DNA of 64,000 bases from Escherichia coli (lineage in GTDB: Bacteria; Pseudomonadota; Gammaproteobacteria; Enterobacterales; Enterobacteriaceae), in NCBI RefSeq assembly GCF_024502345.1, contig NZ_JALDNN010000001.1, one strand, 5' to 3'. Under the pieces are notes generated by a model. That model did no database searches, had not been told where the DNA came from, and saw only the letters and a program-made list of their open reading frames with translations. The position numbers and the translations under genes were made by a program. Of this stretch, positions 10,693 to 60,768 are shown piece by piece (the first letter of the stretch is position 1; each line of letters opens with the position of its first letter).

Positions 10693-11283
10693 TTAGTATT
10701 CAACCTGATGCTTAATAAGCCGATGAAACTGGATCTGCAAGGTATTGATCATTTGCGATGACCAACGAACAGCGCTGTTCTCGGGTAATGAATGGGGCAT
10801 CCATACCGACCAGACAAATAATGCCATGCAGATAAAACGTTCCAGTTGGTTACCCTTTTGGGGAACCAGGATAGGCAAGCGGAAACGCCAGCGGCATGGC
10901 CAGAGCAGGGGAACACCGGCGGGTGTCAGCATATCGGCAAGTATGTGGCTTAAATAACCCAGCACCATTCCTTGTAGCGCATCAGCCGGAATGAACCAGC
11001 TTTCATGAACCTTAAGGTAAAAGGTTGCCAGCAGCGCAAATACCGCCAGCAGACTGTGGGTAAAACCACGATGCCCAAAAGCGCGGGCGATCGGTTTTGA
11101 TATCCACTTTAATCGCTGCCCAAGAAACGACTTTGGGTGATCGATGTCCGGTAACAAACACGTCAGGATTGCGGAAGGGACAATATGCCACCAGTCACCC
11201 TGTGCCAGCACGGGCGTCAGCTCGGCATTTTTGGCAAATACCGCACAAGCAATAGAAAAGAGAAGGTGACCTTCCGCCGTCAT
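10693..11283 (-). CDS. ydjM: Inner membrane protein YdjM (SOS-regulated, metal-dependent hydrolase-like)
   Basis: 196-aa ORF from MTAEGHLLF; LexA boxes immediately upstream. Confidence 0.9.
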   Translation of the reverse strand: MTAEGHLLFSIACAVFAKNAELTPVLAQGDWWHIVPSAILTCLLPDIDHPKSFLGQRLKWISKPIARAFGHRGFTHSLLAVFALLATFYLKVHESWFIPADALQGMVLGYLSHILADMLTPAGVPLLWPCRWRFRLPILVPQKGNQLERFICMALFVWSVWMPHSLPENSAVRWSSQMINTLQIQFHRLIKHQVEY

Positions 11284-11297
11284 GATAAAACTCACTA

Positions 11298-11335
11298 AAC
11301 TGTCGATACGTACAGTATAGGATTTTTATACAGTG
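11298..11335 (-). promoter_or_regulatory. Tandem LexA (SOS) boxes in the ydjM promoter
   Basis: Minus strand reads TACTGTACGTATCGACAGTT (CTGT-N8-ACAG) plus an adjacent second CTGT-containing box, just 5' of the ydjM ATG at 11283. Confidence 0.75.
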
Positions 11336-11445
11336 CACGGAAGTGGTGACGGTGTAACTCTTTCTCTTAAATTGACGATTAATCCGTCAGTTGAATGCAA
11401 ATTCAGATAAAGAACCAGGGGCAGCGTGATCACTGCCCCTGGTCA

Positions 11446-12114
11446 TTAACCGAGAAGGTCTTTTGCGGTGAGTTCTGTCAGCGATGAGAGTTTGACGTTT
11501 GCTAATACAAAACGTGGATCATTTTGCGCTTCTGGCGCAGGAACGACGATGGAACGCATGCGGGCTGCTTTAGAGGCGATCATGCCATTTACCGAATCCT
11601 CCAGCGCTACGCAGGTCAGTGGGTCAACGCCCAGTTTTGCTGCGCAGTCGAGATATACTTGCGGATGCGGCTTGCTGTAAGGCAGTTTTTCGGCCGAGGC
11701 GAGGGCATCGAAACTGTCGCGTAAGTCAAACATGGTCAACACTTTTTCCAGCATATGTAGTGGTGACGCGGAGGCCAGTCCCACCAATAAACCTTGTTCT
11801 TTGCATAACGCAACGGCTTCGCGCACGCCTGGTAATAATGGACGTGTCTCTTCAACCAGTGAAATGGCACGGGCAATAACCCGTTCTACTACTTCCTGAC
11901 GGCTTGGCCCATTCCACGGTTGCCGGGCGTACCAAAGATCGACCACCATATCGATGCGTAAACCTAAGGTGTCCGGCAGCTCGTTACGACGGGAGATATC
12001 CACCCCCAGGCTTGCCATCACATCCAGTTCGGCTCGATCCCATAAAGGTTCTGAGTCGATAAGTAATCCATCCATATCAAAAATTGCAGCAAGAATCTGA
12101 CGCGGGGTTGACAT
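11446..12114 (-). CDS. hxpB: HAD-superfamily sugar phosphatase (2-deoxyglucose-6-phosphatase)
   Basis: 222-aa ORF with HAD motif I (AAIFDMDGLLIDSEP). Confidence 0.92.
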   Translation of the reverse strand: MSTPRQILAAIFDMDGLLIDSEPLWDRAELDVMASLGVDISRRNELPDTLGLRIDMVVDLWYARQPWNGPSRQEVVERVIARAISLVEETRPLLPGVREAVALCKEQGLLVGLASASPLHMLEKVLTMFDLRDSFDALASAEKLPYSKPHPQVYLDCAAKLGVDPLTCVALEDSVNGMIASKAARMRSIVVPAPEAQNDPRFVLANVKLSSLTELTAKDLLG

Positions 12115-47685: not shown

Positions 47686-48951
47686 TTAACCTCTATGCTT
47701 AATTGTGTTTAACCGGGTGCTAAATTTACGCTCGCCAAACCGCACATCATTCTCAGGAATAATAAAAACGCGGTAATAGCGGATAAAAACAATAATTGCG
47801 GTAATCAGGGCCAGCAGCGCGAAAGTAAAATCGAGAACAATGATATATTGCAGGCCGATGTTCGACAGATAACCGGTAATCAGCGGAATAACAAAGTTAG
47901 CCAGTCCACCCATCATCATATAAATACTGGTGACTTTGGCTTTGCTTTTTGGGAAAAACTCTGACATGACCGAAACACCGAGCTGTAAAATGCCGCCAGC
48001 TGCTGAGAAACCGATAACAAAGGCGCCGGCATTACACACCAGTGGAGAAGGGTACAGATAGATAATGGCTGCTGTTATTGTTGCCAGTGCAGAGTTAAAT
48101 ACATTAGCCCAGATGGGCCGGACCATTTTTTTCAGTAGTGCGGCAAAAATAAAGACACAGACCAACGAGCCCATACTGTAATAAGAGATGGTTTTTAATG
48201 CCTCAGCTTCTGACATACCAGCAAAAGCCATCGCATATTTGGGCATCCACACCACAATCACATAAAAGGTCGAGAATGCGGCTACACCGAACAGTACCGA
48301 TGAAACACCTTCCAGCCAGACTAATGGTTTGCTGTTCATTTGCGGTAATTCATTAGCTACGCTGGCGTCCACCAACTGGCTGGGGAATTTGCTTTTCAAC
48401 AGCATCAGCGTGATCAGTACAAACAGAATACCCGGAATAATCAGCCCATAGCCGTACCAGATATTATTGAGCAACATATAGCTCACCAGCATTGGGTAGA
48501 ACATTTGCCCAAATGACACCATCGCTTTAACCAGTATGACCGCCGAACCAGAGGCTTTCGGAAAGCATTCCATGAGCGCGGGGTAGCCACCCGTATCCAG
48601 CGCTGAGTTAGCGATACCTACGCACACTGCCAGACCGTAGGCGAGAGTTAAATTCGGGCAAGCGGGAATACCAAAGAAGAATAGCAGATACATTATTACT
48701 GCCATTAATATCACCGCCCGACGACCAAACTTATCGGAGATCACACCGAAGAATAAAATACTGATCAATCGCCCCAAACCGATACCGGAAATTAAATAGG
48801 CAATGCCCGCGTTGTCAGTGGAAAACTTTTCTGCCAGAGATGTCATATTTTGGGCAAGCGTAATAACACTAATGCCGTGCAGGAAATAGCTGAAGTAAAT
48901 ACAAAGAACAGCCAGGATAAATGGCGTGCTGAAAGCCTTATTTTGAGACAT
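47686..48951 (-). CDS. ydiN: MFS transporter
   Basis: 421-aa 12-TM ORF from MSQNKAF; adjacent to ydiB/aroD. Confidence 0.9.
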
Positions 48952-50848: not shown

Positions 50849-50985
50849 CGTGTAATGGCTGCATGAAATAAACAATAAAATATAAATAACATTATCAGCC
50901 TGCTGACGGCTTGAAGAGAGTCACAGTATCTTGTGCAACATTATTGGAAAGAGTGAGGGGCGAGGTAGCGAAGTGGAAAAATGTT

Positions 50986-51091
50986 AAAAAAAAGCCCATC
51001 GTGGGAGATGGGCAAAGACTACACACAGCAATTCGTTGTTTCACTCAGGGGATTTCCATGCTTATAAATCAATATGTTGATTTATAACCGT
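50986..51091 (-). ncRNA. rprA: Small regulatory RNA RprA (Hfq-dependent activator of rpoS translation)
   Basis: Minus strand reads ACGGTTATAAATCAACATATTGATTTATAAGCATGGAAATCCCCTGAGTGAAACAACGAATTGCTGTGTGTAGTCTTTGCCCATCTCCCACGATGGGC followed by a T-run; between ydiL and ydiK. Confidence 0.9.
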
Positions 51092-56354: not shown

Positions 56355-56529
56355 TCCTGACTTAATGCCGCAAGTTCGCCAAATCGACCTGGATTAACCT
56401 CCGTCCAGGTTCGATGACCTTCTTAATACTGCTTATCTACCGCCTGATATTGTTCAAAAATAATACTAATCGCAGTTTGTGTTAAAACGGCGGGTTAGCT
56501 TTATGAGATTATTCTTATCGCCCCTTCAA

Positions 56530-56612
56530 GAGCTAAGCCACTGAGAGTGCCGGAGATAAGCGCCGGATGGGGTAGAAACCCTTAAGCCTGTGTCGCACAG
56601 ACTTAAGGGTTT
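56530..56612 (+). ncRNA. rydB: Candidate small RNA with intrinsic terminator (position fits RydB)
   Basis: Hairpin cccttaag-cctgtgtcgcacaga-cttaaggg followed by ttttcttattt, about 200 nt past ydiH stop in the ydiH-sufA spacer; 5' end and strand not verified. Confidence 0.4.
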
Positions 56613-59522: not shown

Positions 59523-60768
59523 TGCGCTGCAACAGTGGCATCACTTGTTTGAAGCTGAAGGGACAAAACGCTCACCGCAAGCACAGCAGCATTTACAACA
59601 ATTGCTGCGTACCGGACTGCCGACACGTAAACATGAAAACTGGAAATATACGCCGCTGGAAGGGCTGACCAATAGCCAGTTTGTCAGCATTGCGGGAGAG
59701 ATATCCCCACAGCAGCGAGATGCCTTAGCGTTAACGTTAGACGCTGTGCGGCTGGTATTTGTCGATGGACGTTACGTGTCAGCACTGAGCGATGCGACTG
59801 AAGGCAGCGGGTATGAAGTGAGCATTAACGACGACCGTCAGGGGGTACCCGACGCTATTCAGGCGGAAGTGTTTCTGCATTTGACGGAAAGCCTGGCACA
59901 AAGCGTGACGCATATCGCCGTGAAGCGCGGTCAACGGCCGGCAAAGCCATTGCTGTTAATGCATATTACCCAGGGCGTGGCAGGTGAAGAGGTCAACACT
60001 GCCCATTACCGACATCATCTGGATCTGGCGGAAGGTGCCGAAGCAACGGTGATCGAACATTTTGTCAGCCTTAATGATGCTCGTCACTTCACCGGCGCAC
60101 GGTTCACTATCAATGTCGCAGCGAACGCCCACTTGCAGCATATCAAGCTGGCGTTTGAAAACCCGGTCAGTCACCACTTTGCCCATAACGATTTGTTGCT
60201 GGCTGACGATGCCACCGCATTTAGCCATAGTTTCCTGCTGGGTGGCGCAGTGTTACGACACAACACCAGTACGCAACTCAATGGCGAAAACAGCACGCTG
60301 CGGATCAATAGCCTGGCGATGCCGGTGAAAAACGAGGTGTGTGATACCCGTACCTGGCTGGAACACAATAAAGGTTTTTGTAACAGCCGACAGTTGCACA
60401 AAACTATCGTCAGCGACAAAGGCCGCGCGGTATTTAACGGTTTGATCAACGTCGCGCAGCACGCCATCAAAACGGATGGTCAGATGACCAACAATAATCT
60501 GCTGATGGGCAAACTGGCGGAAGTGGATACAAAACCGCAGCTGGAAATCTATGCAGATGATGTGAAATGCAGCCACGGCGCGACGGTGGGGCGTATTGAT
60601 GATGAACAGATGTTCTATCTGCGCTCGCGCGGGATCAATCAGCAGGATGCCCAGCAGATGATCATTTACGCCTTTGCTGCCGAACTGACGGAAGCACTGC
60701 GTGATGAGGGGCTTAAACAGCAGGTGCTGGCCCGAATCGGTCAACGGCTGCCAGGAGGTGCAAGATGA
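59497..60768 (+). CDS. sufD: Fe-S cluster assembly protein SufD
   Basis: 423-aa ORF; overlaps sufC 3' end by 26 nt. Confidence 0.95.

Follow-up and report, generated by a model that had tools for sequence, protein, structure and literature searches.

The stretch of DNA analysed here, called the window in what follows, comprises 64,000 nucleotides of Escherichia coli. On its minus strand RefSeq places the genes tcyP (ydjN), ydjM, hxpB (yniC), yniB and yniA, and the features described below lie directly in front of ydjM, in the spacer that separates it from hxpB. A 901-bp stretch around this site showed 99.9% identity to the corresponding region of the O145 strain RM9872 and was found in 5,423 of the 5,426 complete E. 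coli genomes. The coordinates are collected in Table 1.

The RefSeq product name for ydjM is 'metal-dependent hydrolase'. Its protein falls into Pfam family PF04307 (YdjM, E 1e-35) and is an inner-membrane protein that the literature calls 'poorly characterized', in agreement with the original prediction, which had described a membrane protein of unknown role. An in-frame GTG at 11295 was considered as the start of the gene and was rejected, since its conservation does not extend to other genera and the RefSeq start is the ATG. The GG/GAG at this place is kept in those genera and the GTG is not, from which the ATG is taken to be the real start of ydjM.

A search of the ydjM-hxpB spacer against Rfam returned no RNA family. 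Elsewhere in the window, matches above the gathering score were obtained for the sRNAs RprA (50984-51091, minus strand) and rydB (56520-56580, plus strand), for the phenylalanine leader of pheST (22188-22312, plus) and for STnc540 (26152-26310, plus), all of which are to be expected in this region of the E. coli chromosome.

Table 1. Features of the ydjM upstream region (positions are those of the window)
Feature	Position	Strand	Remarks
ydjM CDS	10693..11283	minus	196 aa, coordinates including the stop codon; ORF and RefSeq, start ATG at 11283
Shine-Dalgarno-like GTGAG	11291..11295	minus	8-12 nt 5' of the ydjM ATG; read from the sequence
LexA box 1, primary operator, TACTGTACGTATCGACAGTT	11317..11298	minus	-34..-15 from the ydjM ATG
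LexA box 2, weak, half-site only, CACTGTATAAAAATCCTATA	11335..11316	minus	-52..-33 from the ydjM ATG
Candidate -10 hexamer TATACT	11319..11314	minus	relaxed scan
Candidate -10 hexamer TATAAA	11330..11325	minus	relaxed scan
Conserved segment AAGAGTTACACCGTCACCACTTCCGTG	11336..11362	minus	directly upstream of box 2; presumed -35/upstream promoter part
Terminator-like hairpin of hxpB (yniC)	11413..11444	minus	14-pair stem, then a T-rich tail
hxpB (yniC), upstream gene of ydjM	11446-12114	minus	RefSeq/ORF

The LexA (SOS) box of gammaproteobacteria has a 16-bp core, CTGT-N8-ACAG, within the 20-bp palindrome TACTG(TA)5CAGTA. On the minus strand the sequence 5' of ydjM reads ...CCGTG CACTGTATAAAAATCCTATACTGTACGTATCGACAGTT tagtgagttttatc ATG and holds two such elements, one complete and one partial. 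The core of box 1 is a perfect CTGT-N8-ACAG, the only one in the window, and the box ends 14 nt from the RefSeq ATG, so that the placing of the boxes shortly before the ydjM start was confirmed, as were the positions, strand and sequences that had been given for the double box. Box 2, 32 nt from the ATG, carries CTGT in its left half only; its right half reads CCTATA, so that the core is present by half. As 20-mers the two boxes overlap by 2 bp (TA) and their starts are offset by 18 bp. A second CTGT-containing box does thus adjoin the first one, but it does not follow it as had been proposed: box 2 comes after box 1 in plus-strand coordinates only and lies upstream of it in the direction of the gene. 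Moreover, the 23-mer that had been put forward for box 2 extends by 5 nt into box 1.

The bare pattern CTGT-N8-ACAG occurs once in the window, against 0.67 occurrences expected, and 52 of 100 shuffled sequences contained at least one; neither this count nor that of CTG-N10-CAG was significant on its own. The bare-pattern counts were for this reason replaced by a scan with a symmetrised LexA matrix built from 18 published boxes (PMC3009722 Table 4), of which ydjM is not one. Box 1 was the best match among the approximately 64,000 positions of the window (14.6-14.7 bits) and box 2 the second best (12.2-12.5 bits), and the poor matrix score that would have spoken against the original prediction was therefore not seen. 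The training sites themselves scored between 13.1 and 28.4 bits, a range that includes box 1, whereas box 2 falls just short of the weakest of them (polB, 13.1). Divided into halves, box 2 obtained 11.8 bits on the left, which is a near-perfect half-site, and 0.6 bits on the right, which is essentially non-specific. A heterology-type index computed here for box 1 gave 11.0. The next matches in the window, at 34121-34140 (10.0 bits), 48070-48089 (9.8) and 60539-60558 (9.1), are at chance level.

Per random 64 kb, 0.15 sites as good as box 1 and 0.45 as good as box 2 are expected, and two such sites 15-30 bp apart were found in none of 300 first-order Markov sequences of the size of the window. 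The idea that the site is a chance resemblance to an SOS box with no function can appeal to the 0.67 bare cores expected per window, but it is hardly credible in view of this result, of the position directly before ydjM, of the arrangement kept across genera and of the published lexA-dependent induction.

The gene ydjM is listed among the LexA-regulated genes in a review of the SOS response (PMC6590174) and its LexA site is shown in a figure of PMC3444427. Tandem LexA sites at E. coli ydjM were reported experimentally by Fernandez De Henestrosa et al. in 2000, as cited in PMC4951493. Box 2 has an entry for b1728 at -52 with identical sequence (PMC4576408), and RegPrecise holds no entry for it. 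A closely similar arrangement is known from Salmonella enterica, where ydjM is preceded by two SOS boxes whose distances from the ATG, 14 and 32 bp, are those found here, with HI values of 9.12 and 12.85 (PMC8072944 Table 1), and where the gene is induced by nalidixic acid (PMC8072944). Salmonella box 1 (TACTGTATGAATTGACAGTT) is nearer to the consensus than that of E. coli, for which the published HI is 9.0; all of these published ydjM values are below the usual cut-off of 15.

The double operator before ydjM thus matches the tandem sites cited in PMC4951493, as well as the LexA-regulon entry and the two boxes of Salmonella. The feature is the published ydjM operator of E. coli K-12 itself, at the same locus and with the same sequence, with no difference; the operator was already known and there is nothing new in its presence here. 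We take the site to be the tandem LexA operator already described for the SOS gene ydjM, both boxes being bound by LexA dimers, and give this reading a probability of about 0.88. Its sequence, scores, position and conservation were computed in this work, while LexA binding and lexA-dependent induction are taken from the literature, the evidence of binding at second hand.

Conservation was assessed with one genome per species in 80 Enterobacteriaceae loci whose YdjM is 84-99% identical, which together with the window make 81 promoters. The genera include Escherichia, Citrobacter, Salmonella, Enterobacter, the Klebsiella-related Raoultella, Kosakonia, Leclercia, Atlantibacter and Franconibacter. 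Box 1 was present in all 81 promoters, mostly 14 nt from the ATG, and box 2 stood at an offset of exactly 18 bp from it in 79. Invariant throughout are CCTATACTG and ACAG (in box 1, CTG and ACAG), the ACTGTA part of box 2 is at least 96% conserved, and positions 8, 9, 10 and 13 of the box 1 spacer are variable. Within E. coli the exact 38-mer operator was found in 4,038 of the 5,426 complete genomes, K-12-like strains included. A second allele, with one base changed in the box 2 spacer (ATCC to ACCC), occurs in 1,099 genomes, which brings the two alleles together to 5,137/5,426; another 237 genomes differ by one base near an end of the 38-mer.

A few lineages depart from this layout. In Leclercia adecarboxylata (L060) the offset is 19 bp and not 18, and in Citrobacter amalonaticus S646 (L014) and Intestinirhabdus alba (L023) box 1 has been kept but box 2, some 50 nt from the ATG, no longer has its CTGT. 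The E. coli box 1 itself has a spacer richer in G+C (ACGTATCG) and lies about 5 bits below its counterpart in the majority of other genera (ATGAATTG, L006-L080). The usual sequence in those genera is the one given above for Salmonella, which scores 19.6 bits, as opposed to 14.7 for E. coli, and LexA may accordingly control ydjM less strongly in Escherichia than in related genera.

The conservation extends over the whole stretch from -80 to -15 and is not confined to the LexA-informative positions, so that conservation alone cannot tell LexA constraint from promoter constraint. This leads to an alternative in which box 1 is the sole working operator and box 2 is conserved as core promoter (a TATAAA or TACTGT -10, the A-tract, TATACT), its CTGT being incidental. 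The extent of the conserved stretch would suit such an arrangement, as would the mere 0.6 bits of the right half of box 2, the two lineages that have lost its CTGT and kept box 1, and the lack of a RegPrecise entry. We nevertheless consider it unlikely, because the left half scores 11.8 bits in what is the second-best match of the window, because the 18-bp offset with a common TA recurs at recN boxes 2 and 3 (see below), because lexA dependence is stronger than one box with an HI of 9 would predict, and because PMC4951493 cites an experimental report of tandem binding at ydjM.

A strict scan before ydjM detected no consensus sigma-70 promoter. When the scan was relaxed, three weak candidates appeared, among them CCGTCA-16-TATAAA (8/12) and TTCCGT-17-TATACT (7/12), and in other genera GTTACA-17-TACTGT (7/12). 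All -10 candidates of the relaxed scan fall inside the LexA boxes, which occupy the region 14-52 nt before the ATG. In addition, genomic SELEX has predicted a constitutive sigma-70 promoter in the yniC-ydjM spacer, CTGAAA-17-ATTAAT (PMC3946193), whose counterpart in the window is CTGAAT at 11406..11401 and ATTAAT at 11383..11378 on the minus strand, with a spacing of 17, some 45 nt further upstream than box 2. As this predicted promoter is upstream of both boxes, LexA would act on it as a roadblock and not as an occluder. Its stretch is not conserved outside Escherichia, since in other genera a different gene ends there, some 10 nt short of the conserved segment.

The conserved segment that adjoins box 2 on its upstream side (AAGAGTTACACCGTCACCaCTTCCGtg) has no match to the consensus -35. 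Its GTTACA, CGT, AC and CTT are invariant or nearly so in the 81 promoters. In other genera it takes the form GTGAC-N5-GTTAC-N3-GTCAC; the majority sequence of E. coli, an identical 60-mer common to the window and 4,175 of the 5,426 genomes, lacks the left GTGAC. GTGAC-N5-GTTAC was tried as a CpxR- or OmpR-like site and set aside as a weak lead, the left repeat being absent from the majority of E. coli, and the literature yielded no direct link of ydjM to CpxR regulation.

With both boxes bound, the tandem operator could work as follows. One LexA dimer would occupy the full palindrome of box 1, and a second would be held on box 2 by the one half-site of good quality, CACTGTAT, probably with the help of the neighbouring dimer. 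Together they would cover 38 bp (-52..-15) and with them every plausible -10 hexamer, so that RNA polymerase could not start, provided that the promoter overlaps the boxes as the candidate hexamers suggest. After DNA damage, RecA-stimulated self-cleavage of LexA would empty the boxes and allow modest transcription of ydjM within minutes.

The design resembles that of other LexA operators. The 60-bp recN operator of E. coli (positions 401-460 of L082) is found 8 nt before recN in 5,425 genomes, and its boxes 2 and 3 are like those of ydjM: a strong and a weak 20-mer share a terminal TA at an offset of 18 bp, with a poor half-site beside the strong box. In recN, however, the weak box (box 3) is downstream and a third, strong box stands 22 bp further up, whereas the weak box of ydjM is upstream. 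The recN boxes of Salmonella are at 8, 26 and 48 bp. Since the layout of ydjM is that of recN boxes 2 and 3, it may represent a recurring design of LexA operators.

Colicin operators likewise have two overlapping SOS boxes, a strong one and a weak one that overlaps it terminally. The ydjM boxes, with 2 bp in common and 14.7 versus 12.5 bits, are of this strong-plus-weak, end-overlapping kind, a likeness that concerns the tandem arrangement. Colicin operators differ from ydjM in their very tight repression without detectable basal expression, ydjM being induced early and by a few fold. For the colicin operators and for lexA of Verrucomicrobia, LexA has been reported to bind cooperatively to a strong site and a weak one that overlaps its end. 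The lexA gene itself is also preceded by two adjacent boxes in one promoter, as is ydjM, but there both boxes are full and do not overlap, and no inter-dimer cooperativity was observed in vivo (PMC7440846); two boxes do not by themselves, then, imply cooperativity.

A more speculative extension, which we regard as a long shot, is that the segment upstream of box 2 (GTTACAcCGTCACC..CTTCC) may bind a second regulator, giving LexA-independent control of ydjM such as the induction observed when the membrane toxin TisB is expressed, and that the full-box/half-site design with its 18-bp offset, common to ydjM and recN, might constitute a distinct, dimer-contact class of LexA operators.

The published expression data agree with the original prediction in that ydjM is inducible by DNA damage in a lexA-dependent way. 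With AZT the gene was induced 2.5-fold and its lexA dependence was 8.6-fold; with ciprofloxacin the log2 changes between 10 and 120 min were 1.59, 1.53, 2.61, 2.60 and 1.81, the gene being already up by 10 min. Induction is thus early (10 min) and modest (2.5- to approximately 6-fold). The further proposal that the tandem boxes would bring about tight repression could not be upheld, because an early response of at most about 6-fold, and of 2.5-fold with AZT, is not the tight and late one of the colicin type. On the other hand, among the genes of the AZT table with an HI of at least 7.4, none shows a stronger lexA dependence than the 8.6-fold of ydjM, which fits a contribution of box 2.

It is quite possible, if somewhat doubtful, that the two boxes are bound independently and additively with no dimer-dimer cooperativity, box 2 merely widening the blocked region. 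The non-cooperative double operator of lexA (PMC7440846) is a precedent for this, the early and modest induction of ydjM is consistent with it, and an offset of 18 bp, about 1.7 helical turns, would not place the dimers on the same face of the DNA. However, a dimer is expected to bind an isolated half-site poorly, and it is therefore difficult to see how box 2 could be occupied unless box 1 assisted; the cooperativity at the colicin operators and at the lexA gene of Verrucomicrobia, both with strong and overlapping weak sites, points the same way, as does an offset that is nearly invariant (79/81 promoters). For the tandem operator as we read it, a role of box 2 is favoured by this offset, by the same design in recN and by the 8.6-fold lexA dependence, while the early and modest induction, the non-cooperative lexA operator and the two lineages without box 2 argue against a strong claim of cooperativity. 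We would give real dimer-dimer cooperativity at the ydjM boxes, which had also been part of the original prediction, about even odds.

Since the tandem LexA sites of ydjM were published in 2000 and have entered the regulon databases, finding them in this genome does little more than confirm them. The 18-bp offset kept across genera and its recurrence at recN give, nevertheless, a modest reason to ask whether a half-site such as box 2 binds LexA cooperatively. The loci of Citrobacter amalonaticus S646, Intestinirhabdus alba and Leclercia adecarboxylata are natural variants that could be used for probing the role of box 2.
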